Shown here: positions 5,042-64,000 of the stretch, in pieces
How positions within the stretch are numbered: position 1 is the stretch's first letter
Layout of the letters: each line of letters starts with the position of its first letter
Origin: a virus
Taxonomy: Duplodnaviria; Heunggongvirae; Uroviricota; Caudoviricetes
DNA length: 64,000 bases
IMG/VR virus record: IMGVR_UViG_3300021255_002910
Coordinates: 16,088 to 80,087 of that record
Strand: one strand, 5' to 3'
Made by a program: the position numbers and the translations under genes
The notes under the pieces: model-generated
Databases searched by the model: none
The model's input: only the letters and a program-made list of their open reading frames with translations
What the model was told of the DNA's origin: nothing

Positions 5042-5311
5042 CTAACTTGATTTGACATTTGACAATAAAAGAACGGCGGCACTACGCGCTGTCAGGTTCA
5101 AATTAGCTGAGACCTTGGGGTGTTTCCACTGCCCAACGCGGTTGCCGCCGAGACGATATTCTGCCCCCTTGGAGGCATCATAGTTCTCTATCCACGAAGA
5201 TGTTTGCCCACAAAAAACGCTGCCTTCCAAGAGCAGCGACTTGCGGTCGCTAATTTGATTTGACGCTGCAAAGATAAGCAGAATTATTGATATTGCCAAA
5301 TATTTCTTCAT
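5042..5311 (-). CDS. small secreted protein (89 aa, N-terminal signal peptide)
   Basis: MKKYLAISIILLIFAASNQ hydrophobic leader with no lipobox Cys. GC is lower than the surroundings. Confidence 0.5.
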   Translation of the reverse strand: MKKYLAISIILLIFAASNQISDRKSLLLEGSVFCGQTSSWIENYDASKGAEYRLGGNRVGQWKHPKVSANLNLTARSAAVLLLSNVKSS

Positions 5312-7547: not shown

Positions 7548-7768
7548 TTTACTTCTATCCATACGAGGGTATCTTTCTGAACGGTGGTGATGGTGCCGCA
7601 CAGCTGACTGCGCAACTCCAGGAACTGCCGTCCGCGTCCGTGCAGGGCACGGCGCGAGCGGGGTGCCTCGGGGTCGCGGCTGACGAGGGCGCAGTATCGG
7701 GCGCTGACCGTGGGGTCGGCTGCCAGGCGCGGGTAGCTGTCGATGATGGGTAGCGGCGATTTATTCAT
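7544..7768 (-). CDS. small hypothetical protein (74 aa), coupled
   Basis: ATG embedded in the upstream GAATATGAATAA. C-terminus ...TLVWIEVK. Confidence 0.35.
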   Translation of the reverse strand: MNKSPLPIIDSYPRLAADPTVSARYCALVSRDPEAPRSRRALHGRGRQFLELRSQLCGTITTVQKDTLVWIEVK

Positions 7769-7949
7769 ATTCTATCATCAAATAGTTGTCCTTATCAAAC
7801 GTGGTCACTGCGTTGCTGATGCCGTCGGGCCGTGGGGCGAGCTTGTGCTCCGAAAAGTGCAGATGCCCACCCCGGTCGCCGTAGATGCGGCGCTTGGCCT
7901 TCAGTGCTTCGGTGCGCTCGCGGCGCAGAATGGCGTAGTGGTTAGTCAT
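7761..7949 (-). CDS. small protein, ILIEY-family paralog (62 aa)
   Basis: Internal ATG just after the stop of 7955..8206. Ends ...HFSEHKLAPRPDGISNAVTTFDKDNYLMIEYE. Confidence 0.4.
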   Translation of the reverse strand: MTNHYAILRRERTEALKAKRRIYGDRGGHLHFSEHKLAPRPDGISNAVTTFDKDNYLMIEYE

Positions 7950-7954
7950 TTCGT

Positions 7955-8206
7955 TCAGTTCATCGTCTCCTCCCTCGGTGTCTCGCCGATGCGCTGGTGC
8001 ATGGCCTGACGCAGGGTGTCGGCGAGGCTGTCGGCCAGTTGGCGGAGTTTGGGCTGGGGTGTGTCGCGGCGGTCGGCTATCTGTCCGATGGCCGACACCA
8101 TGAGGCGCTGGGCGCACACCATGAGGTCTATCACTTCTGGGCTGTGGAGGTCGAGCGCCTGACGCACATCGTCCATCATCAGCATCATTTCGAGGTCATT
8201 TTTCAT
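7955..8206 (-). CDS. hypothetical small helical protein (83 aa)
   Basis: Complete ORF with coding-like composition. Confidence 0.5.
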   Translation of the reverse strand: MKNDLEMMLMMDDVRQALDLHSPEVIDLMVCAQRLMVSAIGQIADRRDTPQPKLRQLADSLADTLRQAMHQRIGETPREETMN

Positions 8207-8362
8207 TCGTTCGTTTCTTTAATATTGTTTTTGCCCTTTTGGCTTAGGCCGCTTTCCCGTTTGGCGGGAAACGCTCAAACATCAGCTGGAGTTCGAGGTC
8301 GGATTTCATTGCTTGTTTCGCTTTGTTCTGCATGAGAAATTACATGAGGAATGACGTGGCGG

Positions 8363-8932
8363 TCAGAGCAGCCGCAGGAAGTGGACGATGCCATAGACGG
8401 CGGCGGCGGTGAGGGCGCACAGCTTCAGGGCGTAGAGCACCCATGCCGTGCCGCCCACCCACGAGGGATAGTCCGTGAGGCACTGGCCACGGCTGATGCG
8501 CTGCTTGACTATCCAGATGGCCAGGCCCTGCCATGCGCTCTGCAGCGTGTGGAGCAGCAGGTAGGCCAGTGCGCCTGCGGCCATGACGTAGAGCTCGCTG
8601 TACTTGCTGCCGCCTATGAGCTGGGCGGCGAGCAGGACGACGATGGCCCATGCCAGCTGGTCGGCGCGGTCGCCGCTCTTGACGGTGCGCTCCTGGTAGT
8701 CGTCGTAGGCTTGGCGCTCGGTCAGGAGGTCGGTGACGTCCTCCAGCCGCTTGCCGATGCAGTTGCCTTCGCCAAAGAGGTCTTCGCAGATGCAGGAGTC
8801 TTCGTTGTTGCACTTGTCATGCAGCGGGCAGCGGTCGCACTCGGTGCCGTCGCCGCCCTCGTCGGTCACGAGGCGGTAGCGGCGGCCTTCGTATTCGCGG
8901 GTGTCGGGGGTGTTGTTGATGTTCTGTTCCAT
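8363..8932 (-). CDS. Cys-rich N-terminal domain plus C-terminal membrane protein (189 aa)
   Basis: N-terminal CDRCPLHDKC...CICEDLFGEGNC followed by hydrophobic helices. Confidence 0.55.
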   Translation of the reverse strand: MEQNINNTPDTREYEGRRYRLVTDEGGDGTECDRCPLHDKCNNEDSCICEDLFGEGNCIGKRLEDVTDLLTERQAYDDYQERTVKSGDRADQLAWAIVVLLAAQLIGGSKYSELYVMAAGALAYLLLHTLQSAWQGLAIWIVKQRISRGQCLTDYPSWVGGTAWVLYALKLCALTAAAVYGIVHFLRLL

Positions 8933-9083
8933 AATTGTTTTGTTTTTTTGGGGGTGGCCTGTCGGCCAGAAATTTTACTTAAAATTATAGCAGCCTGTCG
9001 GCTGGTAATCGAGTTCTACTCGCTTCGCTCGTCGAAGAAATTTTATTTAGAATGGGTATTTAGAATTTTATTTAGAATGGGTG

Positions 9084-10088
9084 TCATTCGATGCCATACT
9101 GCCGCAGGTATTCCTCGCAGACGAAGCCCTTGCGCGGAGAGAATCGGCGGAACTCCGAAATCTGGAATATCTGGTGCTTGTTGCACCATTGCGCCATGTC
9201 TTTCTGCCACTGCGGTATCGGGCGGTGCGGATTGTCGGGGTCGCGGTAGGGCTGCGAGTAGGGGTAGATGTTGGGCAGATGCTTCTCGCGGCACTCGTGG
9301 TTGCGCAGCCACCAGTAGTGCGTCCGTTCATACGACTCGCGGAAGTCCGACTTGCCGCCTATCATTGTGTAGAGGAAGTATTCGCCCCGGTAGCCGTGCG
9401 AATTGATCATCGAGATGGCCCGCTCGCAGTCGGCTATCTGTCCGTGGGTGTCGCAGCCGAAGCGGATTCGGTTCTGCAACCACTTGACCTGGGCGAGCAG
9501 CCGCGCAAAGCGGTCGTTGACGAGCCGTGCGTCGAGCGCCTGGTTGAAGTCCACCCGATAGCCACGGCTGATGATTTTCTCCAACTGACTGACGGCATAA
9601 TCGCCAGCGGCCAGTATGTTGTTGTCCATTAGGACGAGCTTCGTTCGCCCCTCGATGGCTATCTCGTCGCAGTCCATATAGGGTCGTATCTTGCCCTCCT
9701 TGCGCGGCACGACGCACCACGGGCATCGGTTCGGACAGCCACGGGTAAGGAATCCGTAGGCCGTGTCGCTCGGCACGTTGGGGTATATCGAGTAGTCGGG
9801 CTGCAGGCGGTCTATCTCATCGGGCAGTCGGCTGGCGATGTCGTAGCCCGTGCCGCCGCGTATGATTTCGTCGGCATCGTAGCACGTCAGGTCGTCGGGC
9901 GTGAAGTTGAACACCTTCGACACGTACACCCTATCGTAGTGCATCATCGGCAGTGCCCACTCCACCGTGTCGCCCTGCTCCCGATGATAGCGTGCTATCT
10001 TCGTCAGCGCAAGGTTCGGGTAGATGGTCGCGCCCCATTTCTTCTTCTTGGCGTGTCCGTCGATGTCAACAAGTCCTATTCGTTTCAT
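9084..10088 (-). CDS. radical SAM protein
   Basis: LTRGCPNRCPWCVVP matches CxxxCxxC. Start chosen at MKRIGLVDIDGH. Confidence 0.7.
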   Translation of the reverse strand: MKRIGLVDIDGHAKKKKWGATIYPNLALTKIARYHREQGDTVEWALPMMHYDRVYVSKVFNFTPDDLTCYDADEIIRGGTGYDIASRLPDEIDRLQPDYSIYPNVPSDTAYGFLTRGCPNRCPWCVVPRKEGKIRPYMDCDEIAIEGRTKLVLMDNNILAAGDYAVSQLEKIISRGYRVDFNQALDARLVNDRFARLLAQVKWLQNRIRFGCDTHGQIADCERAISMINSHGYRGEYFLYTMIGGKSDFRESYERTHYWWLRNHECREKHLPNIYPYSQPYRDPDNPHRPIPQWQKDMAQWCNKHQIFQISEFRRFSPRKGFVCEEYLRQYGIE

Positions 10089-10192
10089 TCGTGTAATTCG
10101 TGTTCGTTTCAATTCGTCTCTCTGTGAGAGAAGGGTGCGCGGCGGCTGTGCGTGTCCGCCACGCTCCCTTTTCGGGTCATGCACGGGGGGCT

Positions 10193-10747
10193 TTACGGCT
10201 CCATCTCCGAGCCGCCGCCCTGAGTGCCGCCGCCCTGAGTAGAGCCGCCCTGAGTAGAGCCGCCGTCAGCCGTGGGGTCGGCGGGCGTCTGCGAGGCGTT
10301 GTAGTCGACGCGCTCGGCCTGCTTCTGCAGTGCGAACTGCTTGGAGATGTTGCGCCCTACGGAGGCTGCGAGTGCCCACGTGATCATGTCGGCGGTGAGC
10401 ATGTCGGCGGTGGCCACGGTCTTGCCGGGGTACTTGTCGGGGTGCTGCTGCACGTCCTTGTCGCTGACGCTGCCCGTTGCCGTGGGGTAGAAGCTGACGA
10501 GCACGCCGCCGTCGGCTTCGAGCTGCACGCGGTTGTTCTCCCTGACCTCCTCGATGATGATGTTGGCGGCTTCTTCGAGGATGCTCTTGATTTCGGCTGC
10601 ACGGCTGATGCCGCGTGCCTCAATCTTCTTGGCCAGCTCCTTGTTGGTGATGACGTTATCGACTACGGCCTGTGCATAGACCGAATGGCTGCCCTGCTGG
10701 TTGGCAGTAGGGGTGAACTCCATGACGCGAAATTTGTTTTTCGCCAT
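10193..10747 (-). CDS. HU-family DNA-binding protein (Bacteroidetes HU-like domain) with Gly/Gln-rich C-terminal repeats
   Basis: VYAQAVVDNVITNKELAKKIEARGISRAAEIKSILEEAANIIIEEVRENNRVQL matches the Bacteroidales HU-like fold pattern. C-terminus GGSTQGGSTQGGGTQGGGS. Confidence 0.7.
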   Translation of the reverse strand: MAKNKFRVMEFTPTANQQGSHSVYAQAVVDNVITNKELAKKIEARGISRAAEIKSILEEAANIIIEEVRENNRVQLEADGGVLVSFYPTATGSVSDKDVQQHPDKYPGKTVATADMLTADMITWALAASVGRNISKQFALQKQAERVDYNASQTPADPTADGGSTQGGSTQGGGTQGGGSEMEP

Positions 10748-10836
10748 AATGTTTGTACGATTGACCTTATACCATCGCGAGGTTTCTTGTTGTTTATACG
10801 GTCTGCCTGTCGGGAGACAGATTTTCCTTTTTCCGG

Positions 10837-10921
10837 CGGGGGTACTACTTGAAGGTTTGTTTAAGTTAACTTAAAGCCGGGTTAAAGTTAACTTTAACGA
10901 AGGTTCAAGTAGTCCCCCCTG
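10837..10921. promoter_or_regulatory. nested palindromic locus: outer 17-bp inverted repeat flanking two perfect AT-rich palindromes
   Basis: TTAAGTTAACTTAA (10861-10874) and TTAAAGTTAACTTTAA (10882-10897) are flanked by GGGGGTACTACTTGAA ... TTCAAGTAGTCCCCCC. Confidence 0.5.
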
Positions 10922-11527: not shown

Positions 11528-12687
11528 TCATTCTTCATTTCCCGAAAAGTCGGGCAGGCTGACCTTGAAGCGCTGCTGGAGCCACTCGCGGTAGTCGCGG
11601 ATGCCGAAGAGGTCGGCGTCGTTGCTGGCCAGCCACTGCTCCCACTTCTTCTGCCGCTCAAAGAACACCTCGCGGAAGAACCACTGATATACGTCGCGGT
11701 ACTTGCCGACGGTCTCCACGTCGGGGTGTGTCTCGCGGAAGGTCTGTGCCGCACGGCAGTAGGCGCGTACCATCTTCGGGTATTGCTCGAACTGGCGGAT
11801 GCGCTTCTTGTAGTAGGCCAGCGGACAACACATACAACCGAGCCGCCGCTTCGCGTCCACACTGCCGTCGCGACGGTAGTAGAGCGGATGCACCTGCAAC
11901 GAGTGGCGGTCGATATAGTTGAGCACGTCCTCGTCGGTCCACGTCAGTATCGGGTAGATGGCTTCCACGTGGTTTTCCTCCGTCTTGGCACCGTAGTAGC
12001 GGCACTCCGTAGGCTCGTCGTAACGCTTGTCGCGCTTGGTCGATTCGGCCTTGCGTATGCCCATCACGGCCTTGTCGAGGGTCTTGTGCTCCTTCAGATA
12101 GCGGCAGCAGTGGCGCTGGAATCGGTTGGGCATACCCATCTCGGCTATCAGCTGGAAGAACGACTTTTCGGGGCGCACCGTTTCTACCCCCCCACTTGGC
12201 GGATGTGGCCTGCCGTGCCCGGCGGGTCGATGGTGGTCGAGTGGTAGATGGCACGGTAGCGGATGCCGCTGCGCCGCGTGAGGTCGAGGATGACGTCGCT
12301 GTCCTTGCCGCCGCTGTAGCCCACTTCTATCTCGCCCCGGTAGCCACGGGCCACGCTCTGCAGCAGCTGTATGGCCTGCTGCTCCTTGTGCGAGAGGCGG
12401 TCGGCATCGGTGACGGCGAAGGTGTCAGCCGGCTCGTAGTCCTTGCCCGGTCGGCAGGCTTCCACCGTCATGCCGTCGGTGGAGAGCATACGGTGCTTGC
12501 GGTGGCCGCTGATGCGGAAGCGCAGGACGTCGAAGCACTGCGAGGTGCCCGTGCGTCCGTACTTGTCGCAGTGGATGAGCCACGTCTGTCCCCGTCGGGG
12601 CACTATCATGTGCTCACGGTGCAGCTCCAGCCGGTACTGCTCGCCCCTGTAGCCGATGGTGATGTCTATCTGTTGCTGAAAGTACAT
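11528..12687 (-). CDS. PAPS-reductase/PP-loop ATP pyrophosphatase family protein (DndC/CysH-like), split by a frameshift at a G7 tract
   Basis: N-terminal part (12184..12687) has GYSGGKDSDV. C-terminal part (11528..12178) has GIRKAESTKR and ILTWTDEDVLNYIDRHSLQVHPLY...CMCCP. The junction coincides with a C7 run at 12187-12193. Confidence 0.6.
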
Positions 12688-19799: not shown

Positions 19800-21077
19800 T
19801 CATTTCTCAGCGTTAATCAACATCGGCATCTGTAGCAGCAGGAGGCCGGCCTTGTCGTCGTCGGGCGAGAGGAGGAAGGCACGGCTGGGGTCGGCGAGGC
19901 GCAGGCGCACGTCATCGGTGGTGATGGCCGAGAGGAGGGTGAGCATGGTCGAGATCTTGCAGCCGAAACGCAGGTTCTCGGGGAAGGTGGTGTCGCCGTC
20001 GTTGACGATGGCCACCTGCTCGTCGGCCTGACGCGAGAAGTCGTAGTCACTGGCCGAGAGGTGGAGCTGCGAGCCGTCGCGGTAGAAGACGACCATGTTG
20101 CTCGACTCGTTGGCAAACACCTGCACGCGGCGCAGGGCCGACGACAGCTCGGCACGCCCGATGACGAGCAGGTGGGGGTTGTTCTGCGGGATGACCGAGT
20201 TGTAGTTGGGATAGCGGCTGTCGATGGTGCGCGAGACGAGCCGTATGCCGTCGGTGGCGAACTCGATGCGCTGAGTGTCGGCAGTCATTGTCACGCTCTT
20301 GGCACCGGCGAAGGCGTTCTTCAGCGGCGTGAGCACTTGTGGCACGATGAGCACCGTGGCGCTCTGGTCGGCAGCGAACTTGCCATAGTCGAGGTAGCCC
20401 ACGCCCGGCTCGATATGGCGGCGGTAGAGGGAATGTCCGTCGCTGCTGACAAACACGGCCTTGTCGTGGAACAGGTCGGCGCAGACGCAGCCCATCTGGG
20501 GGCGCAGCTCGTCGCTGGCTACGCAGATGCTCGCACGGATGATGTGCTGCACCAGCTCGTCGCCCTGCATCGTGAGGCGGACGAGGGGCGTGGCACCCGA
20601 CGGAGAAGCGCCGGCACCCTCGGCGGCATTTTCGGCGGGTACGGCCACGGCTGGCAGAGCGGGATATTCGTCGGCACTCTCTACGGGCAGTGAGAACTCG
20701 CCCTTCTGGTAGTTCACCTTCAGCAGGTTCTTCTCCGTGTCGATGGTGGCGGTGACGGGCATGGCGGGCAGCGTGGCGATGGCCTCGCGCAGGGTGCTGT
20801 GACTGATGGCCACCTGCGTGAAGGGGTCGCGGCGGTCGGGGTCAATCATAATCATCCACGGCTGACGGTTGCCGTCCTTGTCGGTGGTGGCGCAGTCGAT
20901 AGAGAGGAACTGCTCGCTGTTGCCCGACAGGAGCGTGAAGAGGTTCTGCTCCTTGTTGTAACGCAGGACTATATCGCCCAAAATTGGCAACGAATTTTTG
21001 CTGTTGATTACTGTGCCCGCCATAGCCAGGGCTTTCTTCATCTCTGAGGTCTCAATTCTTACTAAGATTTTGCTCAT
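19800..21077 (-). CDS. dnaN: DNA polymerase III beta (sliding clamp)-like protein
   Basis: N-terminal LPILGDIVL and C-terminal ...LLLLQMPMLINAEK clamp signatures; 425 aa. Confidence 0.75.
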   Translation of the reverse strand: MSKILVRIETSEMKKALAMAGTVINSKNSLPILGDIVLRYNKEQNLFTLLSGNSEQFLSIDCATTDKDGNRQPWMIMIDPDRRDPFTQVAISHSTLREAIATLPAMPVTATIDTEKNLLKVNYQKGEFSLPVESADEYPALPAVAVPAENAAEGAGASPSGATPLVRLTMQGDELVQHIIRASICVASDELRPQMGCVCADLFHDKAVFVSSDGHSLYRRHIEPGVGYLDYGKFAADQSATVLIVPQVLTPLKNAFAGAKSVTMTADTQRIEFATDGIRLVSRTIDSRYPNYNSVIPQNNPHLLVIGRAELSSALRRVQVFANESSNMVVFYRDGSQLHLSASDYDFSRQADEQVAIVNDGDTTFPENLRFGCKISTMLTLLSAITTDDVRLRLADPSRAFLLSPDDDKAGLLLLQMPMLINAEK

Positions 21078-29112: not shown

Positions 29113-29925
29113 TCAATCCTTTACATTCTGTTCCTCCCCGAATATCATCTGCCTTGCCCTCACGATGTCGGGCCGCTGGCTCTCCATGAAGCGGCGGTAG
29201 CCGGCACACTGGCCGCAGGGGCGGAAGCGGCGCATACGGCTCCAGATGTCGGCAAACGGGTCGGCGGTGACGTTGCCCACCGAGGGGCACAGGCGGCTCT
29301 CCGACAGGTGTACGCCCCCTGCGGCATCCACCGACGGCTTGCACAGCTGACCGTGCATTTGCAGCGCAACGCCATAGCCTTGCGGCATGGGCAGTTGGCG
29401 TGCGGCGAGCGTGGCATTCAGGCACGACATAAATTGCGGGTTGCGCTCCACCTCGCGCTGTGCATCGGGGTTGGTCCTCGCCCGTCCGAGGTCTTGCATG
29501 TAGATGGTCGAGTCGATGTCAACGACGACTTTGCGGTACTGCTCGTAGTCGCTGCGGTGGCTCACCACGTAGTCGTAGTCCTTGTACCACTGCCGGTGCG
29601 TATATACCTGCATACCGAGATAGGAGTGCATTCGGGTTATCCAGTCCACGCGCTGCCGTTTCATCTCGTCCTTCAGCCATGCGCCGTTGGAGACGATGGT
29701 GAAGGTGCAGCTCGTAGCCATGTCGAGCCACTCGCACATTTCCGTGATGTGCTCGTTTTCCGTCGGCTCGCCGCCCGACAGCACGAAGTGGCTGCAGCCG
29801 ATGTATGTGCCGAACTTGACGGCCTGCCTGAATGTGTCGAGCGTCATCACCAGCCCCGTTGACTGTGCGTCCTCCATGCAGTGCGGACACTGCATCTGGC
29901 ATTGTGTAGTCAGTTTGATAAGCAT
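29113..29925 (-). CDS. radical SAM protein
   Basis: TTQCQMQCPHCME (CxxxCxxC) and VLSGGEPT. Confidence 0.7.
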   Translation of the reverse strand: MLIKLTTQCQMQCPHCMEDAQSTGLVMTLDTFRQAVKFGTYIGCSHFVLSGGEPTENEHITEMCEWLDMATSCTFTIVSNGAWLKDEMKRQRVDWITRMHSYLGMQVYTHRQWYKDYDYVVSHRSDYEQYRKVVVDIDSTIYMQDLGRARTNPDAQREVERNPQFMSCLNATLAARQLPMPQGYGVALQMHGQLCKPSVDAAGGVHLSESRLCPSVGNVTADPFADIWSRMRRFRPCGQCAGYRRFMESQRPDIVRARQMIFGEEQNVKD

Positions 29926-46124: not shown

Positions 46125-47135
46125 TTACTGGACGGCGGGGCTGGGGGTGAAGATGCTCCAGTCCTTTGAGACGGAGTGTGGCCACTGCGAGAGATATTCG
46201 CGGGCGGTCATGCCGTGGACGGGCTGTGGGTCTTTCTCCGACTGCCCGAGGAAATCGGCTACAGACTGTTTCCAATAGACCGTGGCGCGGCCAGCGGTCA
46301 GCTCCATCACATAGTCCACGAATTGACAACACTCGGCAAGGTCGTAGGGCGCAAAGGTCTTGCCGTCAAGCGTAAAGCCCTTGCGGCATACCTTCGTGTT
46401 CTTCGTCATCAGACCGATTTTGAAGTGTTCGCAGCCTGCGTCGAGGGCCTGCTGGATCATGCGGAAGCTGGAGTCGAAGTCGATGACCGGCTCGATGGAG
46501 GCCCAGGTGAACCATCCTTCACCGTTCAGATACTCGATAGCCTTGATGCGTGCAAGATTAGGTGATGCGTTAGGCTCCAGTTCGTCGTGACCAGTGAGTG
46601 TAAAGCCGATAGCAAGCCGTTTCTTATGGGTATTCTCTAAGTCCATTACAATGTCTGTCAGCCACCTGTCAACCTGAAGTGCTTGTTCCTTGTCAAGAAG
46701 GAAAGGATGGTCGTTTCTACAGAAGTAGGCGTTCTTCGTCAGCAGAGTCACGGGTATCTCACTATTCATAGCGGCATTCGCTATACGGAACGTCAGTCCG
46801 CACGTCTCCGGCAGACACGGGTCGCTGGTAAAGGTGAAGAACAGCCCGCCGTCGCGGATAATCTGCTCACGGTTCTCCAGTATCTCGACCATTGCCAAGT
46901 GATAGGCGTGGTCTTCACTGACGATGCCTTTCTTCAGTACGGCCTGCGGCTGTCCGAGGCAGCCGCCGGAGGGGCTTGACTTCAAATAGCAGTACAAGCA
47001 GCCGTGCGGACATCCGATGTATGGATTCACGCTCCAGCGGCCATATTCTTCGGCATTGCCTTTGGGTTTGGATAGTATCTTCATTCGTTTCGTTCGTTTT
47101 AGGGAGTGGTCAATGTACGACCGCTTACTGGACAT
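46125..47135 (-). CDS. radical SAM protein of the SplB/DNA-photolyase-like family
   Basis: WSVNPYIGCPHGCLYCYLK matches the NPYxGCxxxCxYCY signature. Confidence 0.7.
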   Translation of the reverse strand: MSSKRSYIDHSLKRTKRMKILSKPKGNAEEYGRWSVNPYIGCPHGCLYCYLKSSPSGGCLGQPQAVLKKGIVSEDHAYHLAMVEILENREQIIRDGGLFFTFTSDPCLPETCGLTFRIANAAMNSEIPVTLLTKNAYFCRNDHPFLLDKEQALQVDRWLTDIVMDLENTHKKRLAIGFTLTGHDELEPNASPNLARIKAIEYLNGEGWFTWASIEPVIDFDSSFRMIQQALDAGCEHFKIGLMTKNTKVCRKGFTLDGKTFAPYDLAECCQFVDYVMELTAGRATVYWKQSVADFLGQSEKDPQPVHGMTAREYLSQWPHSVSKDWSIFTPSPAVQ

Positions 47136-49442: not shown

Positions 49443-50048
49443 CTATTTACGGATTTGTAATTTGTGCAGCCACCAACGACGAGTAATCAATAACGCGACA
49501 CCGAGAATTGTCCCGGCAATGAACCATTGCAGACTGTCCCACAGGCGGCGATACCACGGCTGAGTAGCGGCAGGAGTGGAAATGTGCTGCTCGTTGGTGC
49601 TGTCACGCTGCTCCCAGTGGGTCTGCAATCGGCTCTCGGCGGCCTGCAGGAGAGAATCGTAGGCGGCTAACTGCCGCTGATAGGCCGCCTGCATCTGCTG
49701 CTGCCATTGTTCGCGGTCGCGCTGCTCCTGGCGCGAGAGTGTGCGGTCGGTCGTGCGCTGTTCGGTGCGTAGCTGTCGGCCAAGGCTGTCGATGGAGGTG
49801 GTGATAGTCTCGGTGATGGTCTCTCGGCTGTCCTCGTTAGTGGTGCTGCGCTCGTATTCGCGCTGCATAAAGGAAGTAAAGAGACTGTCGAGCCGCTCGG
49901 AAATAGCCGTTAGGTGGGCGTCGGTCTGTGCTTGTTGGGCCAGCGTGTCGGCCTCGATGTGATGGGAATGGTGCTCGTAAATCTCCTTTTTTGTGACGCA
50001 GGAGCATAGGCTGATAGCCGCCAATACGATGAATAAGTTCTGTTTCAT
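49443..50048 (-). CDS. lipoprotein with C-terminal TM anchor
   Basis: MKQNLFIVLAAISLCSC lipobox; Gln/Arg-rich coiled coil; C-terminal hydrophobic helix. Confidence 0.55.
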   Translation of the reverse strand: MKQNLFIVLAAISLCSCVTKKEIYEHHSHHIEADTLAQQAQTDAHLTAISERLDSLFTSFMQREYERSTTNEDSRETITETITTSIDSLGRQLRTEQRTTDRTLSRQEQRDREQWQQQMQAAYQRQLAAYDSLLQAAESRLQTHWEQRDSTNEQHISTPAATQPWYRRLWDSLQWFIAGTILGVALLITRRWWLHKLQIRK

Positions 50049-50162
50049 ATTCGTTTCATTTTTTCTTCGACACAAAGGTAGGGAAACGGGGAATACTGAT
50101 AGGTACTAAAAAACAGGTGCCGCAGAAATTTGCAGCACCTGTTATATATTGTCACCTAAACT

Positions 50163-51704
50163 CTATGTTGGTTGACCTTGCGGCTTCGGATTGTCAGCCT
50201 CCATCAACCTGTATTGCAACTTTACATCTTTGCCGAAATGCTTAGCGAGCGTGGGCGCAAGCACACTCTGCACCACCTCCGGTCGCTCTAAGAACTTATA
50301 TACATCGCTACTTTGTACTTGTATAATCAGCGTATGGGTGGTTTCGTTGAACGACTCAAAGGCCAGCTGCCCGACAATGGCACGGCTATGGTCGTTGGTA
50401 GTCTGACGCAGCAGGTCGGCGTGGCACTGCTGCCATGCTTGCAGCCATCGTTCATCGGGAAACAGCGACAACTCGACGCGCTGCGGTCGCTGTTCCGCAG
50501 GCTTCTTCGTCTTGGCGACCCACGAGCGGAACAGCTGCATCAGGTAGGCAGCCACATCGTCGGGCTGAGCCGTCTCGATGATACGCCGGGCATCGTGATA
50601 AGCATAGTCCTGGAAAGCCACCAGCTCGTCGCCGTCGATGTCGGCAACAAGCGATTTCAGTGTCTCTCGGTCGAGGTCGGGACAGTAGGCTGTGAGATTC
50701 TTCACCAGTTGATTCTCCACGGCTTCACGGTGGAGTATCACGTCGCGGTTCTTGCCAAGGTTCGACATGCGTATGCGAAACTCGATGTAGTCGGGGTCGC
50801 CACGTCGCCGCGAACCGTTGTAGATAGGCACATAGTCGAAGATGATGTCCGTCTGGTTGAGCTGTGCCATGCGCAGAAGGTCCTCACGTGCCTTGTCGAG
50901 CACCTCCTTGCAGAAGCGTGAGAACTTGGGATATTTGTCGCGGGTCTCTTCGTAGGGATTGTTATTCTCGTCGAGCAAGTGGATATGTTCTATCACGCCT
51001 AAATATTCCTTCACCTCCTGCACTGTCTTCAGTACGCGGTATTCCGTGCGTCCAGGTTTGCGGCGCATTTCCTCAGTAAACGGCTTGCGCAGGAAGAGGT
51101 AGATGCGCGGCGTGGCCTGACGGCGCGAGTAGGCCGCTATGAGCTTCATGTGGTTCACGTAGCCCTCAGTCATGTCGAACACGAATTTGGCCACCTTTGG
51201 ATTGATACTGAAGTCCATGTAGCCGCGTCGCTTATCGAAAGTGCCGACAACCATCTGCGTGGCCTTGTCGGTCTTCTGATAGCCGCCCTCTACGAAGGGG
51301 ATGCTCACCTCGTCGAACACCGGCATCCACTTCTTCACCTTCTGCCCCGTCTCGTCCACGTCGTCGGCCATGATGTCGAGCGACATGATTTCGTGGCGTA
51401 TCTGGTCGAGCCGCGAGTAGTGGTTGTCGTCGATGGTCAGTTCCGACATTTTTACACGTATCGTAGGCAGCGGCTCCGACGTAAATAGCGGCTTGGGTGT
51501 TTCCTTGTCCAGATAGCGCTTCTCGTCGAGAAACTGCTTCACGTAGGCTTGCAGACCGTCGCTCACCTTCAGCAGTATCTCTTGCTGCAGCAGCGAGAAG
51601 TTGGCTCCTAAGCGTGTGTAGGCAAATGGTGTGTTGATCCACCGTGAGTCCTGCAAATCGGCCTTCGGTACAGGCACGATGTCTGTCTTCTTTTCTCTTG
51701 CCAT
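50163..51704 (-). CDS. putative plasmid-type replication initiator (Rep)
   Basis: 513-aa ORF immediately adjacent to, and transcribed away from, the iteron arrays. No strong family motif seen by eye. Confidence 0.5.
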   Translation of the reverse strand: MAREKKTDIVPVPKADLQDSRWINTPFAYTRLGANFSLLQQEILLKVSDGLQAYVKQFLDEKRYLDKETPKPLFTSEPLPTIRVKMSELTIDDNHYSRLDQIRHEIMSLDIMADDVDETGQKVKKWMPVFDEVSIPFVEGGYQKTDKATQMVVGTFDKRRGYMDFSINPKVAKFVFDMTEGYVNHMKLIAAYSRRQATPRIYLFLRKPFTEEMRRKPGRTEYRVLKTVQEVKEYLGVIEHIHLLDENNNPYEETRDKYPKFSRFCKEVLDKAREDLLRMAQLNQTDIIFDYVPIYNGSRRRGDPDYIEFRIRMSNLGKNRDVILHREAVENQLVKNLTAYCPDLDRETLKSLVADIDGDELVAFQDYAYHDARRIIETAQPDDVAAYLMQLFRSWVAKTKKPAEQRPQRVELSLFPDERWLQAWQQCHADLLRQTTNDHSRAIVGQLAFESFNETTHTLIIQVQSSDVYKFLERPEVVQSVLAPTLAKHFGKDVKLQYRLMEADNPKPQGQPT

Positions 51705-51738
51705 ATTCCTTATTATTTATAGTCACCTTGGGAACATA

Positions 51739-52108
51739 TCTCCCATTTTTTGTACCAACTTTGCGTTTCTACCATTTTTTGTACTTTCAACTCCCATTTT
51801 TTGTCCGTTCTATCTCCCTTTTTTTGTACCAAAACCTCCCATTTTTTGTACCTCGATACCTCGAAAGCCCTTTGTTTATCGGCATTCCCGCTTTCGCTAA
51901 AATAAAAATACTCCTTATAATCAGATAAAAAGAAAAGTCGGATTTATAATATTATATTTATTTTAAGCAGATGGAAAACCCTTTGTTTATCGGCGTTTCC
52001 AGCGATTGAGGGACAAAAATAGGGAGTTATTGGGACAATAAATGGGAGTTATTGGGACAACTTTTGGGAGATAGTTGGGACAAAATTTGGGAGATAGTGT
52101 CCCAACTC
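51739..52108. other. iteron-type origin: five direct (C/T)CCCATTTTTTGTAC(C) iterons at 22-23 bp spacing, an AT-rich core, then four or five iterons in inverted orientation (GGGACAAAAATGGGAG)
   Basis: Direct set 51739-51852 and inverted set 52010-52108; CCCTTTGTTTATCGGC direct repeat on both sides of the AT-rich 51900-51965 core. Confidence 0.7.
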
Positions 52109-52162
52109 CGTGACTCCAGTGATTTCGCTGGTGGTTCATAAAGTGGTATGTTTCCGTAGCTA

Positions 52163-52546
52163 TCATATCTGCTGATCCTGCTCTGTCCTCTCCACATACT
52201 CCTTGATAGCCAGCACCACGAGGTCTTTCATGTTCTGCCGCGTCTTGGCCTTGATGATGGCCAGGCGCGAGTGCAGGCTGATGGGGATTGGCACATTGAT
52301 GTTCTGCGTCGGCTCGCCCTGGGCTATCATCGCCGTGGCGGGGATGGTCTGAGGGGTGTTTGCAAATTTTTCACTCTTCACTCTTTGCTCGGCTTTGCCG
52401 CTTTGCTCTGCAAAGAATTCTTCACTCTTTGCAGGCTCTCCCCCACCCTGCCCTATTTTCTGGTAGCCGTTTTTCACCTCCTGCTCCATGTCACTGATCA
52501 ATGAACCCTGCATCGCATCGGCGTTCCAATTATTCTTCTTTGCCAT
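52163..52546 (-). CDS. ribbon-helix-helix (ParG/CopG-like) partition/regulatory protein
   Basis: C-terminal NINVPIPISLHSRLAIIKAKTRQNMKDLVVLAIKEYVER; lies downstream of ParA. Confidence 0.5.
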   Translation of the reverse strand: MAKKNNWNADAMQGSLISDMEQEVKNGYQKIGQGGGEPAKSEEFFAEQSGKAEQRVKSEKFANTPQTIPATAMIAQGEPTQNINVPIPISLHSRLAIIKAKTRQNMKDLVVLAIKEYVERTEQDQQI

Positions 52547-52595
52547 AACGAAAAAATATTTTTATTAGTTTTATAAGTTAAATAGTAAAATAGTT

Positions 52596-53486
52596 TTAAG
52601 CGAACAGGTCTTTGGCCAGTCGCTCGTAGGCCATGCCGGCCCCGCTGTATGGTTGCCAGTCATAGATAGAGAGTTTCTTTGTCTGTGCCTCGTTCATCTT
52701 CGCCTCGTTGGGCACACCGCTGACGGGTGTCTTCTTGCTCTTGTTCCACTGATAGAGCAGCAGATGGTCGCCGAATTTCTCGCGCAGGTCATCCAGGATG
52801 CCACGTGCGATGTTGCTGCGCAGGTCGGTCTTTACGGGCAGTATGCCGGTCAGTTCCAGTTGCGGGTTCAGCTCCTGCTTTACGCGTCCCATCTCAACGA
52901 GAATAGGGCCAAGACCGCTCACCGACAGTCCCTCTAACGTGGTGGGGATAAGCAGGCCGTTGGCCACGGCCATTGCGTTATAGGTGGATTTCGAGAGTGC
53001 CGGAGGGCAGTCAATCAACACATAGTCGAACACCACGGGCACGATAGGCCCTGCTCCGTCATAGCGCATGCCGTCTATCAGGTCGGTGGTGGTCACTCCG
53101 TTGAAGAAGCACTTACGCAGCGCGAGCATCGGCTGCATCTGCCTTGTCAGGTCGGCATCCACGTCCTGCAACAACGGAGAGCCGGGACAGAGCCAGATGC
53201 CCTTGTCGCTGGTGATAGGCTGGTTCATGCCGTTCTTTTTTGTCGGCACTTGATAGACGGGTAGCCCTGTCTGCTCGCGCATGGCGTCGTACACCGTGCG
53301 TCCCCTACCCTGCTGCCAGCCCATCAGCCGTGACAGGTGCCACTGCGGGTCGAGGTCAATCACCAGTACCCGTGCATCCCTGTCCTGCCTTGTAATGGCC
53401 ACGGCCAAGCTCTGCACGGTTGTCGTCTTTGAAGTCCCGCCCTTATGGTTCATAACGGCCAGGACGTCTTTCAGTCTTGTTTCCAT
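52596..53486 (-). CDS. parA: ParA-family partition ATPase
   Basis: Deviant Walker A NHKGGTSKTT and DLDPQ motif. Confidence 0.8.
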   Translation of the reverse strand: METRLKDVLAVMNHKGGTSKTTTVQSLAVAITRQDRDARVLVIDLDPQWHLSRLMGWQQGRGRTVYDAMREQTGLPVYQVPTKKNGMNQPITSDKGIWLCPGSPLLQDVDADLTRQMQPMLALRKCFFNGVTTTDLIDGMRYDGAGPIVPVVFDYVLIDCPPALSKSTYNAMAVANGLLIPTTLEGLSVSGLGPILVEMGRVKQELNPQLELTGILPVKTDLRSNIARGILDDLREKFGDHLLLYQWNKSKKTPVSGVPNEAKMNEAQTKKLSIYDWQPYSGAGMAYERLAKDLFA

Positions 53487-53555
53487 GATTCTATACTACT
53501 TGTAATTAACAAAATGCTTTATAAAAACTACTTCTGCCCTACCCTATTGTGCAGG

Positions 53556-53630
53556 GGTTGCGGAAGGAGGACTCGAACCCCCGACCTCCTGGTTATGAGC
53601 CAGGTGAGCTACCAACTGCTCCACTCCGCG
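53556..53630 (-). tRNA. tRNA-Met: tRNA-Met (CAT), initiator-like
   Basis: Manual fold: acceptor CGCGGAG/TTCCGCA with a C1:A72 mismatch, D-arm GAGC-AGTTGGTA-GCTC with A11:T24, anticodon arm CCTGG-CTCATAA-CCAGG, T-arm GGGGG-TTCGAGT-CCTCC. The 3-prime CCA is not encoded (ACCC). Confidence 0.75.
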
Positions 53631-54141
53631 ATGTCTCTTCTTTTGATGATGCTTTCTAAGCGGCCTGAATTGCGGCCTTCGTGACTTGTAATTGAACTTC
53701 GTCTGCAAAATTAGCGATAATTCTTAAATTCACCAAATATTTCGCTAAGAAACTTATCTATCTACCTACATTTTTATATATTTACATAGCTATATTGCTA
53801 TATAACTAACTAAATAGTTACCAAACAATCTAACTACCTTTATATATAAATAACTATATAAATAAATAGTTTGCAAACTACTTAACAATATAAATACATA
53901 TATAACAAGATAGCTAAATAACTACTTAAATAACTATTTTACGAAAATAAATAAACTTATGAAGATTATAAAAGTAATACATATTATAAAACTATTAAAG
54001 TTACGAAAATAATAAAACTATTTTTATAAGTTTTCTGTCTGGCTGCTCGGTGATTCCGCCGGAGCAGTGATTTCGCAGCCCTTGTATAGTGGGGAGTGGG
54101 GTAGGCCAGTGATTTCGCAGGGGTTTTATAACGGGGCTATG

Positions 54142-57383: not shown

Positions 57384-58277
57384 TCAGAAGGTGTAGGTGA
57401 TGGTACCGTCCCATTCGGTGTCGAGGATGATGCTGATGCCGCCGGACGATGGTGTGCCACCCTCGGTGCCTGTGCCTGTGTCGGAGAAGAGAGCACCCTG
57501 CCAGGTGGTGATCTTGTTGCGCGTCACGGGTATGTTGTCCATGACCACCTCGCCCACCTCGGAGCCTGATGCGTCGAGGGCGGTGACGGTGAGCTTCAGC
57601 ACGTCCTGCTGCTCATGGGGCATGGTGTAGAGTTCATAGACTGTGACGGGCATGTCCTGGTCGTTGGTGGTGTAGCGGTACTCCGTCTGCTTCGAGTTCA
57701 CGCAACCGTAGCCCGTGGCGGGGCTGAAAGTCGATGACCCGCCGGTGTAGTAGAACTTCAGACGGGTGATGTTGTGGGGCAGCGGATCGGTGAGCGTGAG
57801 GCGTAGCATGGCCACGCAGCGGGTCATCTCCAGCGTTTCCTCAATGGGGTCGGTGCCGACGGTGAGGGTGCCATAATAATAAAAGGTGTCGGTGAGTTTG
57901 TTGTTGGCGAAGGTCACTTTCTCCAGGCTGGTGATGGTGGCGTTGCCCTCGGCGGAGCTGTGCGCGATGGCCACTATCTTATAGGTTCCGGCCTGGAGGG
58001 TGAGGGCAGCAGTGCCGAAGCCCGCGTCCGTCTGCTTCTGGGTGATGGCCTTGGCCTTGGTGCCGTCGGCGGTGAAGATAGCTACGGAGAGGCGGGTGCA
58101 GACATCGGCGACGGCGGCGCGGGTGAAGCTGATCTGCTCGTAGGGGGAGAAATGGAGGGTGACGTTGGGATGGGCATCAGCGACAGAACCGCTGGCCGCT
58201 CTTTCCTCGTCGAAGATAGGCTTCTCGCAGGAGGCTGCGAGGAGAGCCAGGATGGAAATTAAAACAAGTTTTTTCAT
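57384..58277 (-). CDS. fimbrillin-family (FimA/Mfa-like) lipoprotein
   Basis: MKKLVLISILALLAASCEK lipobox. Ser/Thr-rich beta-rich protein typical of Bacteroidales fimbrial subunits. Confidence 0.5.
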   Translation of the reverse strand: MKKLVLISILALLAASCEKPIFDEERAASGSVADAHPNVTLHFSPYEQISFTRAAVADVCTRLSVAIFTADGTKAKAITQKQTDAGFGTAALTLQAGTYKIVAIAHSSAEGNATITSLEKVTFANNKLTDTFYYYGTLTVGTDPIEETLEMTRCVAMLRLTLTDPLPHNITRLKFYYTGGSSTFSPATGYGCVNSKQTEYRYTTNDQDMPVTVYELYTMPHEQQDVLKLTVTALDASGSEVGEVVMDNIPVTRNKITTWQGALFSDTGTGTEGGTPSSGGISIILDTEWDGTITYTF

Positions 58278-58930: not shown

Positions 58931-59842
58931 TCACCACTCCCCGTTATACTCCTCGTCCCACGCGCCATCGAGGGCAAGCGTGAAGCCGCTGTCGATGTTG
59001 AAGAGGTTGCCCTTGTAGGCCGTCACGCGGTTGGCCTTGAAAGGCGCGTTGCGGATGACCGTCTGCCCCAGGATGTTGTCGTCGCCGTCGGTGGCCGTCA
59101 CGGTGATGTCGGCCTGCCACTCGTCGGCGCTGGAGAGGCCGAAGAACGACACGCTCTGGTTCTTCTGTCCGGCGCAGGACGATGGCACACTGATGGGCAC
59201 TGCCTGCTGCTGTGCGCCCGTGGGCGAGCCGTTGGTGTAGTCGATGGCGTAGAACCAATTCGAGGGTTCGAGCGAAATGGTGGCGATGTCGGTGGGCAGC
59301 GCGTCCTGAATGGTAATGGATAGCTTGGTGGTCACGCGGTGCAGGGTGACGGTCTGCGTGGCGGCGGTGTTTTCGTCAACGGTGAGCGTCACGGCTTGCC
59401 AGAAGGTGTCCGAGGGTGTGCCCCAGGTGATGGTGTGCTCGGTGGTGGAGAGCACCGGCTGCTTGCCACGAGAGGCCACGAAGTAGAGCGTGTGGCTGCC
59501 TTGTGGGAGAGAGAGCGATGGTGTGCCGAAGTCCGGGTCGGCGGTCTGCTGGTGCAGCTGCTGCTTCAGAGTTCCGTCCTGATAGTCGAGCAGCCAAAGG
59601 TCGGTCATATCCTTGCCGTCGGCGGAAAGAGAGGCGCGGGTTATCCCGCTGGGAGAACCAACGGGCACACTACCGCTGCGGGTAGTGGCGGCATCGGAAT
59701 GGAAGTCGCCGTTGACGGTGAAGGTGATGCGGGTGCGGTCGGTGCCGTCGTAGGTGGTCATGTCCTCGTCGGTGAGGATGGTCTTCTCACAGGCTGTGAG
59801 CACCACTGCGATGCCCATCAGCAGAAATAGGTTTTTCTTCAT
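58931..59842 (-). CDS. fimbrillin-family lipoprotein
   Basis: MKKNLFLLMGIAVVLTACEK lipobox and similar architecture. Confidence 0.5.
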   Translation of the reverse strand: MKKNLFLLMGIAVVLTACEKTILTDEDMTTYDGTDRTRITFTVNGDFHSDAATTRSGSVPVGSPSGITRASLSADGKDMTDLWLLDYQDGTLKQQLHQQTADPDFGTPSLSLPQGSHTLYFVASRGKQPVLSTTEHTITWGTPSDTFWQAVTLTVDENTAATQTVTLHRVTTKLSITIQDALPTDIATISLEPSNWFYAIDYTNGSPTGAQQQAVPISVPSSCAGQKNQSVSFFGLSSADEWQADITVTATDGDDNILGQTVIRNAPFKANRVTAYKGNLFNIDSGFTLALDGAWDEEYNGEW

Positions 59843-61775: not shown

Positions 61776-62048
61776 ATGGAAGTATTTATCAAGCGCGAGA
61801 TGCAGCGTAAAGGCATCAACAACCGTCAGTTGGCCGCTGCCCTCGGTGTAGGCGACAGCTATGCCAGCGGCATCAGCCGGGGCGACAAGAATCTCTCCAT
61901 GAACACGCTGCAGCAGGTGGCCGACGTGTTGCAGGTGCCTGTATGGCGGTTGCTCGCCCCTGAAGAAGTGGCCGATGCACCATCTACCCACTCGTCGGCC
62001 ATTATCTGCCCGCAGTGCGGTCACGAAATCAAAATCAAGGTAGAGTAG
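61776..62048 (+). CDS. XRE-family HTH regulator with C-terminal zinc-ribbon-like CPQCGH
   Basis: LAAALGVGDSYASGISRG...LSMNTLQQVADVLQVPVWRLL. Confidence 0.65.
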   Translation: MEVFIKREMQRKGINNRQLAAALGVGDSYASGISRGDKNLSMNTLQQVADVLQVPVWRLLAPEEVADAPSTHSSAIICPQCGHEIKIKVE

Positions 62049-62220
62049 TTCTTAAACACGAATGGCCACGAATGCCCCACGAATTATCCATATAATTTTT
62101 CAGGCGTAGAATAATTACATGAGAAATTATATGGGCAATTACTGGTAATTACATGTAAAAAAAGGCGGCAACAGTCCTTGTGGGATTGCTGCCGCCTGAT
62201 GTCTTCTCCGCCCCCGGAGC

Positions 62221-62640
62221 TCACACCTCCACGAAGTCGATGCTCCTGCCGAGGGCGGTGGCTATCTGTGCCAGCGTGTCGAGCCCTACGCTGTATCGGC
62301 CTGTCTCGATGCGGGCGATATGCGCCTGGGCAATGCCGCACCGCTCGGCCAGCTGAGCCTGCGTCATGTTCTGCTCCTTGCGCAGAATGGTTATGCGGCG
62401 GCCTATGCGCTTGCGCTCCTCTATCTCGTCGAAGATACGGTTGGCTACCAGGTTGATCCACTCTCCGTTGTCGCTCACCAGGCAGTCAACAACGGTGTAC
62501 TGCTTGCCGTCAACCTCCACTTCCGCGTTGCCTACGTCGAAGTTGAAGCGCAGTAGCGGAAAGTTATGGGTGAAGGGCAGGGTGATGTAGTACACGTCAC
62601 CCTCCCGCTTGATTTTTGTGTAATTGTCAAGTAAAATCAT
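62221..62640 (-). CDS. XRE-family HTH regulator (HTH in the C-terminal half)
   Basis: MTQAQLAERCGIAQAHIARIETGRYSVGLDTLAQIATALG. Confidence 0.6.
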   Translation of the reverse strand: MILLDNYTKIKREGDVYYITLPFTHNFPLLRFNFDVGNAEVEVDGKQYTVVDCLVSDNGEWINLVANRIFDEIEERKRIGRRITILRKEQNMTQAQLAERCGIAQAHIARIETGRYSVGLDTLAQIATALGRSIDFVEV

Positions 62641-63845: not shown

Positions 63846-64000
63846 AATTCTGTGCCGCTGTTTTCCGTTGCCGCCGGTGTTCTAAGTTTGACTTTAAGTT
63901 TGATGTTGCAAAGGTAAGCATTATTTTTGAATATACCAAATAAATCATTAAGAAATATATCAAATATATCATTATTTAACATTTCAAGGGCAGAAAAGGG

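Follow-up and report, generated by a model that had tools for sequence, protein, structure and literature searches.

A plasmid-type replication and partition module on the genome of a tailed phage, a candidate phage-plasmid of rumen Bacteroidales

Positions 49,443–53,630 of a 64,000-nucleotide stretch (the window) of the viral record IMGVR_UViG_3300021255_002910 carry a gene for a replication initiator, Rep, an iteron origin, and a pair of partition genes coding for a ParA ATPase and a small ribbon-helix-helix (RHH) protein, here called the adaptor. We analysed this segment, the tailed-phage genome in which it lies and its relatives in metagenomes, and propose that it maintains the phage as an extrachromosomal prophage. 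The features on which the argument depends are, in order of position:

50163..51704, minus strand: Rep, 513 aa, a predicted Pi/RepE-type two-winged-helix initiator with a C-terminal domain resembling DnaA domain I
51740..51852, plus strand: proximal iteron array, five direct 17-bp copies of CTCCCATTTTTTGTACC, at 51740, 51769, 51791, 51814 and 51836
51863..51889, plus strand: 27-nt direct repeat, left copy
51898..51966, no strand: AT-rich core of ~70 bp, ~80% A+T by sliding A+T content, holding a 28-nt imperfect inverted repeat
51974..52000, plus strand: 27-nt direct repeat, right copy, GAAAACCCTTTGTTTATCGGCGTTTCC
52010..52093: distal iteron array, four copies inverted relative to the proximal array; the plus strand reads GGGACAwwwwwwGGGAG, spacing 22–23 bp
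52163..52546, minus strand: RHH adaptor, 127 aa, with a peptide of ~35 conserved residues at the N-terminus, then a variable linker, and the RHH domain at the C-terminus
52596..53486, minus strand: ParA ATPase, 296 aa, deviant Walker A motif KGGTSKTT, no N-terminal DNA-binding domain
53555..53631, minus strand: tRNA-Met(CAU), between the repeat region below and parA
53750..54030, minus strand: candidate centromere and par promoter region, AT-rich, with TAGTTA six times and TAGTTT three times

The initiator and its origin

Firstly, we assigned Rep by structure and by family profile. Its AlphaFold (AF2) model (predicted local distance difference test score, pLDDT, 82.6) has the tandem winged-helix (WH1–WH2) fold, and a Foldseek search of the model against the PDB returned the Pi–iteron complex 2nra (E = 9.7e-10, template-modelling (TM) score to the target 0.66), the RepE54–iteron complex 1rep (E = 1.9e-5, TM 0.70) and RctB (E = 1e-2). 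The C-terminal ~85 residues matched DnaA domain I (4tps) and DciA-type domains at a TM score of 0.8. A family profile of 47 sequences (the query and 46 homologues, from a search that found 63) gave the same two assignments against the PDB, DnaA domain I at 2.4e-5 and R6K Pi at 9.7e-5, and PF01051, PF21205 and PF11638 are carried by some of the homologues; PHROGs and NCBIfam returned no match for Rep itself. On its modelled fold, Rep is thus a divergent Pi/RepE-type initiator with an extra DnaA-domain-I-like module. It shares with Pi of R6K (gamma ori) and RepE of mini-F (ori2) the two-winged-helix fold and the ~22-bp-phased iterons placed beside an AT-rich region and rep, but is only 12–13% identical to them and about twice as long, with an added helical region besides the DnaA-domain-I-like C-terminus.

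Rep also has relatives on plasmids. By tblastn it is 21–35% identical to annotated replication proteins of five Segatella/Prevotella plasmids (59–568 kb). The proteins of NZ_CP137558.1 and NZ_CP085934.1, ordinary plasmids with metabolic genes, belong to the same family (34–35% identity over residues 1–319, E = 1e-43 to 1e-44) and come from the same host family; they are shorter than Rep (411 aa in NZ_CP137558.1), and the match ends at about residue 318, before the C-terminal region. The DnaA-domain-I-like C-terminus itself (50163–50440, Rep residues ~415–500) is found in homologues of ~500 aa, and PF11638 is called in the most distant homologues, while homologues of ~420 aa and the Segatella plasmid Reps apparently do without it. 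The domain seems to have been gained or lost within the family.

Secondly, we established the layout of the origin. The motif CTCCCATTTTTTGTACC was searched for over the 64-kb window at up to three mismatches and the count compared with that in shuffled sequence: nine matches were found against 0.06 expected, eight of them inside two opposed arrays. Between the proximal array and the rep start codon are 36 bp, and the copies of this array are spaced by 29, 22, 23 and 22 bp; the distal array has minus-strand copies at 52010, 52032 and 52077 (up to three mismatches) and at 52054 (four mismatches). The initial annotation, made from the sequence by eye and translation, had placed Rep next to an iteron origin with an AT-rich core, which the counts and the composition bear out. 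It had also noted the same iteron in inverted orientation beyond the core, now seen to be an array of four copies, and five direct iterons spaced by 22 bp; the five direct copies are there, whereas the spacing is 22–23 bp in all gaps except the first, of 29 bp. Directly repeated iterons beside rep and an AT-rich region are what accompanies Rep_3 and Pi/RepE initiators, and the core is the presumed DNA-unwinding element.

The core is flanked by the two copies of the 27-nt repeat (89% identity, 111-bp spacing), which the initial annotation had not listed. This repeat differs from the iteron and contains only a poor DnaA box (TTATCGGCA, two mismatches). Classical Pi/RepE origins use host DnaA boxes; here, in contrast, no box with zero or one mismatch was found in 51700–52165, the sole site found having two. 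Two other approaches to the origin gave little: a sigma-70 promoter scan found six sites against 4.7 in shuffles, the sigma-70 model being ill suited to Bacteroidota promoters, and GC skew gave no information because almost all genes share one strand.

We compared the origin with related loci (L-numbers), drawn around Rep homologues in ENA, in IMG/VR and in the metagenome-assembled genomes (MAGs) of GTDB; a scan of IMG/VR with the single Rep sequence had found nothing, whereas an alignment-based scan found relatives. Both L010 and L011 have two opposed iteron arrays around an AT-rich core, as in the window, and L011 keeps the 27-nt repeat pair at the identical 111-bp spacing. In L012, whose Rep is divergent (31–36% identical), other repeats occupy the corresponding gap, indicating that the repeats change with the initiator.

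From this layout we infer how the origin would work. Rep monomers would bind the 17-bp iterons, phased at about two helical turns, on both sides of the ~70-bp core (five copies on one side, four opposed copies on the other), and the core would then melt. The C-terminal DnaA-domain-I-like module would probably recruit the replicative helicase of the host; that Rep may do so itself is suggested by the presence of this domain together with the lack, at the origin, of a DnaA box with fewer than two mismatches. Since the proximal array lies so near the rep start, it probably overlaps the rep promoter, and its occupation would repress rep. Pairing of arrays between copies, or handcuffing, would in turn limit the copy number.

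The partition genes and a candidate centromere

Thirdly, we examined the partition genes. ParA matches Pfam AAA_31 (E = 9.6e-29, from residue 8 onwards), CbiA (9e-11) and PHROG 164, a ParA-like partition protein (1.4e-37); in NCBIfam, the partition models for ParA and RepA give matches that stay under the cut-off. Its small size, its deviant Walker A motif (KGGxxK[ST], read from the translation) and the absence of an N-terminal helix-turn-helix (HTH) domain are those of a type Ib ParA, as is the position of an RHH gene immediately downstream, the adaptor gene beginning 49 nt after the parA stop. The adaptor itself has no direct match in Pfam, PHROGs or NCBIfam. Its family, however, is recognisable: 19 of the 41 members match 56B_RHH in Pfam, nine Omega_Repress and two ParG, and the family profile matches the PDB structures of ORF56 (3.3e-4), CopG (2.8e-3) and ParG (0.021). 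The ParA ATPase and the RHH/ParG-like protein that the initial annotation had proposed are therefore both confirmed, the latter by way of its family.

The N-terminal peptide of the adaptor (consensus MAKKNxWNADxMQGSLISDMEQEVKxGYQxIGQGGGE in the family alignment) is conserved even in members whose RHH sequence differs, a pattern to be expected if the N-terminus contacts ParA and the RHH domain reads the DNA. The arrangement resembles that of ParF/ParG/parH of TP228 and of delta/omega of pSM19035, where the gene of a small ParA, again of the deviant Walker A kind, precedes that of a small dimer-type RHH protein whose N-terminal region is flexible, with short repeats ahead of the operon; the adaptor profile matches the ParG structure (1p94), and Pfam ParG and Omega_Repress matches occur in the family. 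The match to ParG is nevertheless weak (E = 0.02), ORF56 and 56B-type RHH proteins being the best, and in comparison with known type Ib systems this family has a repeat motif of its own, TAGTTA, and a conserved N-terminal peptide of its own; a further difference is the tRNA gene that separates repeats from parA here.

The 430 bp upstream of the tRNA gene are 74% A+T and contain six TAGTTA motifs against 1.2 expected, a number reached in one of 500 dinucleotide shuffles. The motifs are set around an imperfect palindrome with 46-nt arms, centred at 53873/53874 (core TAGTTTGCAAACTA). In L011, whose adaptor has the RHH strand of the window's adaptor (EPTQNINVPIPVSLH), parA is directly preceded by eight TAGTTA motifs at 8-nt spacing, a number that 0 of 500 shuffles reached; in L010 and L012, which have other adaptors, AACAA-type repeats take the place of TAGTTA. 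Our hypothesis is that the TAGTTA region is a centromere and operator, co-varying with the protein that would bind it. In this scheme the C-terminal RHH domain of the adaptor would recognise the TAGTTA repeats ahead of the operon, its N-terminal peptide would stimulate ParA, and the two proteins would segregate copies in type Ib fashion, as do ParF/ParG and delta/omega. Another candidate site for the RHH protein is the distal iteron array, just beyond the 3' end of the adaptor gene.

The tRNA-Met gene that the initial annotation had seen beyond ParA was found by ARAGORN and by Rfam (tRNA, 60.4 bits). The relatives L010–L013 do not have it at the corresponding position, and by this comparison the gene is cargo that entered the par leader on the parA side of the TAGTTA repeats. 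We rejected the gene as an integration site: it is complete, element DNA lies on both sides, and the relatives are without it. Read by eye, it looks like an initiator tRNA. In the acceptor stem, 5'-CGCGGAG...TTCCGCA-ACC, there is a C1xA72 mismatch like that of E. coli tRNA-fMet, the base of the anticodon stem has two of its three hallmark G:C pairs, and the 3' end is ACCC, with CCA not encoded.

The association of the partition genes with Rep is conserved. In 19 of 21 related loci, down to a Rep identity of ~32%, ParA lies 0.5–2.5 kb upstream of Rep on the same strand. The two parts of the module are nonetheless separable: in L019 (IMGVR_UViG_3300028832_000185, 7693–10906), ParA is 88% identical to that of the window and the adjacent Rep only 35%, so that the partition and replication modules are exchanged independently. 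These identities indicate that replicons otherwise distant from each other have exchanged the partition module recently.

A circular phage genome and its probable lifestyle

We then turned to the replicon that carries the module. The exact Rep is encoded on scaffold_132 of ERZ28612978, a metagenome contig of 133,762 bp in ENA, of which the window is positions 53235–117234. A second assembly, NODE_118 of ERZ12302814 (133,733 bp, 246x coverage), is identical over the 11,750 bp compared; its start corresponds to position 118,145 of the first contig, from which it proceeds in the direction of position 1. A collinear linear contig would be at most 118,145 bp long and, as 118,145 + 15,617 = 133,762, NODE_118 wraps around the other end of the first contig. 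Hence the element, found in two assemblies of near-equal size with permuted starts, assembles as a circle without host flank, a result that bears on the assembly check for a circular replicon that the initial annotation had called for. Its statement that the window lacks an integrase also held: Pfam and PHROG scans of the 84 open reading frames (ORFs) of the window found no integrase family, and no integrase or recombinase family was found in the 83 kb read of the 134-kb contig.

The element is a tailed-phage genome. Just beyond window position 1 lie genes for a 533-aa head-maturation protease (PHROG 53, 7e-29), with tblastn matches, all distant, in 126 phage records, mostly of phages of Bacteroidota hosts, and for a 436-aa protein that is modelled as a major capsid protein of HK97 fold (357 PDB matches at E <= 1e-3, T5-like and HK97 capsids on top). 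Just beyond position 64000 lies an amidase endolysin gene (PHROG 822, 2e-56), and YopX, DUF3310 and MazG within the window likewise count towards a phage identity. The minus strand carries nearly all genes predicted in the 64 kb, and the module is, as had been noted, co-oriented with its neighbours. A divergent pair of HTH genes at 61776–62640 looks like a repressor switch for lysogeny-type regulation. The replicon of the module thus carries virion and lysis genes on the one hand, and a plasmid initiator and a partition system on the other, the two kinds of genes by which phage-plasmids are recognised (PMC7969092).

The same combination recurs in relatives. Rep and capsid genes share a contig, in the same orientation, on NODE_283 of ENA (101,593 bp) and on three IMG/VR viral contigs, four contigs in total. 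The capsid family is present on 68 IMG/VR viral contigs, the largest of 129.5 kb, and the contigs of Rep and capsid relatives cluster at 93–135 kb. One capsid homologue, P0097, lies on a contig of 246,228 bp, about twice the usual size, and may stem from a concatemeric assembly, from a larger relative or from an integrated copy. The MAG bins of the relatives are Bacteroidales, Prevotellaceae, Prevotella, Bacteroidaceae and Paludibacteraceae, with two probable mis-binnings, and the host is probably a rumen Bacteroidales bacterium of the Prevotellaceae. Megablast of 49443–53630 returned no match in INPHARED phages or PLSDB plasmids, and tblastn of Rep and the capsid protein none in INPHARED (50,697 phage records). 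By relatedness to a deposited phage or plasmid genome, the element could therefore be placed in no known phage-plasmid group, the protease alone matching, and distantly.

We read the segment as the plasmid-type maintenance module of a tailed phage of ~133.7 kb with an HK97-fold capsid, which would persist as a low-copy extrachromosomal prophage, that is, a phage-plasmid, of rumen Bacteroidales, and we give this reading a probability of about 0.7. The initial annotation had left the choice between a phage-plasmid and a composite integrated element; the circular assembly, the virion genes, the initiator and the conserved Rep–ParA block favour the former, and make the element a well-supported candidate phage-plasmid.

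Several observations weigh against this reading. The plasmid state is deduced from metagenomic assemblies, and virion DNA that is circularly permuted or terminally redundant would be just as likely to assemble as a circle. Some phages also use iteron-binding initiators for their vegetative replication. Contig positions 1–44226 and 127080–133762 (~51 kb) lay beyond the reach of the integrase search, so that the search outside the window, for which the initial annotation had asked, is answered for the 83 kb only. A Rep without family assignment had been named beforehand as evidence against a plasmid-type module, and Pfam Rep3_N does score only 20.1 bits on Rep, below its cut-off of 22.4; the family profile and the AF2 model assign the protein to the Pi/RepE type all the same, and on this evidence Rep is a divergent relative of Rep_3 and not a curated Pfam member. 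The centromere is assigned from motif enrichment in AT-rich DNA with two concordant elements only, and the argument from co-variation is weakened by L012, whose adaptor is unrelated and whose A-rich repeats are yet like those of L010.

The strongest of the alternatives, though we consider it unlikely, is that Rep and its iterons form only the vegetative origin of the phage, comparable to lambda O and ori-lambda, with the ParA pair serving another role or a transient carrier state and with no stable plasmid prophage. Rep may indeed be the sole initiator of the phage, as neither a second initiator nor a DNA polymerase was found in the window, which holds a sliding clamp only, and full-length structural matches to Rep in BFVD come from uncultivated 'Siphoviridae sp.', so that the family is phage-borne. 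ParA and the adaptor are, however, tightly linked to Rep in those 19 of 21 loci; such linkage is typical of low-copy plasmid maintenance and needless in lytic replication. Homologous Reps replicate genuine Segatella/Prevotella plasmids, and the repressor-type HTH switch genes are present.

We regard as improbable that the element is a conventional integrated prophage or a composite island, whose integrase and att sites would lie outside the 83 kb searched. There is room for them in the 51 kb of the 133.7 kb that remained out of view, some elements alternate between integrated and plasmid states (PMC7969092), and the capsid homologue on the 246-kb contig could be chromosomal. In contrast, the two permuted assemblies of near-equal size show no host flank and the contigs of relatives cluster in size as described; the 83 kb that were read hold phage-like genes on one strand and no recombinase family, and the tRNA gene, complete, embedded in element DNA and missing in relatives, bears no mark of an attachment site.

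Slightly less probable still is a large Bacteroidales plasmid that has captured a prophage, possibly defective, or a set of phage genes, as might be suggested by the presence of the Rep family on ordinary Segatella/Prevotella plasmids with metabolic genes and by much non-virion cargo (methyltransferases, radical-SAM enzymes, acyl carrier protein, Mfa2-like fimbrillins): capsid and Rep/ParA are linked in the same orientation on diverged IMG/VR contigs (capsid 31–45%, Rep 35–38% identical) and on an ENA contig (capsid 75%, Rep 59–69%), a co-occurrence that implies long-term linkage and not a single capture; at 99,930 bp, a size found in both families, the capsid is 77% and Rep 35% identical; and no conjugation genes were found in the scans of the window. 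A capsid conserved beyond Rep is a pattern that the title of a survey reports for phage-plasmids (PMC7969092). We also rejected the idea that ParA and the small protein correspond to TraA/TraB, at the start of a conjugative element of Bacteroides: Pfam and PHROG scans of the window proteins found no relaxase or type IV secretion families, and virion genes are present.

If the element is a phage-plasmid, its closest counterpart in design is P1. P1 has RepA with the oriR iterons and a ParA–ParB–parS system, with partition of type Ia, a large ParA and an HTH ParB. Both are large tailed phages with an iteron-controlled initiator, arrays on two sides and a ParA partition cassette; P1 needs no integrase, and none was found in the 83 kb read of the present element. 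The searches of phage records found no sequence relationship between them, however, and the present element has a small ParA, an RHH adaptor, a Rep with a DnaA-domain-I-like C-terminus and a host in another phylum. The P1-type design is thus known, and the fusion of Rep with a DnaA domain I is a variant feature.

In Bacteroidota, the only other phage-plasmid claim in the literature searched concerns crAssphage (Carjivirus communis; PMC10983915, PMC7969092). That proposal rests on RepL-type genes; the paper mentions no iterons, and its retrieved passages report no partition system for crAssphage itself (PMC10983915). The phage-plasmid survey lists groups in Firmicutes, Actinobacteria and Proteobacteria, with crAssphage as a singleton for Bacteroidota, and considers Bacteroides and similar clades probably under-detected (PMC7969092). 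No description of Rep/ParA phage-plasmids in Prevotella or in the rumen was met in the literature searched. We would tentatively suggest, as a possibility short of an expectation, that these elements are the first Bacteroidota lineage of P1-style phage-plasmids: widespread uncultivated rumen and gut phages of 60–135 kb in Prevotellaceae and Bacteroidales, which would persist unintegrated by means of an initiator that has absorbed the helicase-recruiting domain of DnaA and fires independently of host DnaA boxes. If true, this would extend the phage-plasmid lifestyle to a dominant phylum of gut and rumen, and would help to explain the binning of such phages into MAGs. The compact 4.5-kb replicon with its stability cassette is a candidate vector backbone for Prevotella and Segatella, and the fusion of Rep with a DnaA domain I would offer a way into how iteron initiators recruit the helicase.

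Neighbouring genes and cargo

Downstream of rep lie two further features:

50112..50143, minus strand: terminator-like hairpin, 13-bp stem and T tract, 20 nt after the rep stop, a match to the consensus only
49443..50075, minus strand: 210-aa protein with an N-terminal lipoprotein-like signal (…LAAISLCSC), followed by a long coiled coil and, at the C-terminus, a hydrophobic helix

The 210-aa protein has no credible family match in Pfam, PHROG or NCBIfam. Homologues lie directly downstream of Rep in L011–L014, L019, L027 and L029, and 6.5 kb downstream in L021; the protein probably stands outside the replication and partition machinery. Its topology recalls a unimolecular spanin, an identity that no family match backs.

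Elsewhere in the window are genes for methyltransferases, radical-SAM proteins, a sliding clamp, MazG, YopX, DUF3310, an acyl carrier protein, HU-like proteins and HTH regulators. Part of this is unusual cargo, with genes at 9084–10184, 29113–29925 and 46125–47135 (minus strand) and at 11528–12178 and 19800–21077; it comprises the radical-SAM proteins, three in number, PAPS-reductase-like and nucleoside deoxyribosyltransferase-like proteins, the acyl carrier protein, MazG and a DnaN-type clamp. It is possible that this cargo acts in DNA modification or nucleotide remodelling. Two Mfa2-like fimbrillin or anchor proteins (57384–58277 and 58931–59842, minus strand; best Pfam Mfa2 E = 5e-15), which are also present in the relative L012, could be host-surface morons or virion fibres. 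Finally, a c4-2 RNA candidate (Rfam RF02944) at 5072–5150 on the minus strand, between a 627-aa ORF and a C5 methyltransferase gene, scores 41.2 bits against a gathering score of 41 and is therefore marginal; RF02944 belongs to the clan of c4 antisense RNAs, which act in P1/P7 immunity, and the match is of interest in a candidate phage-plasmid.

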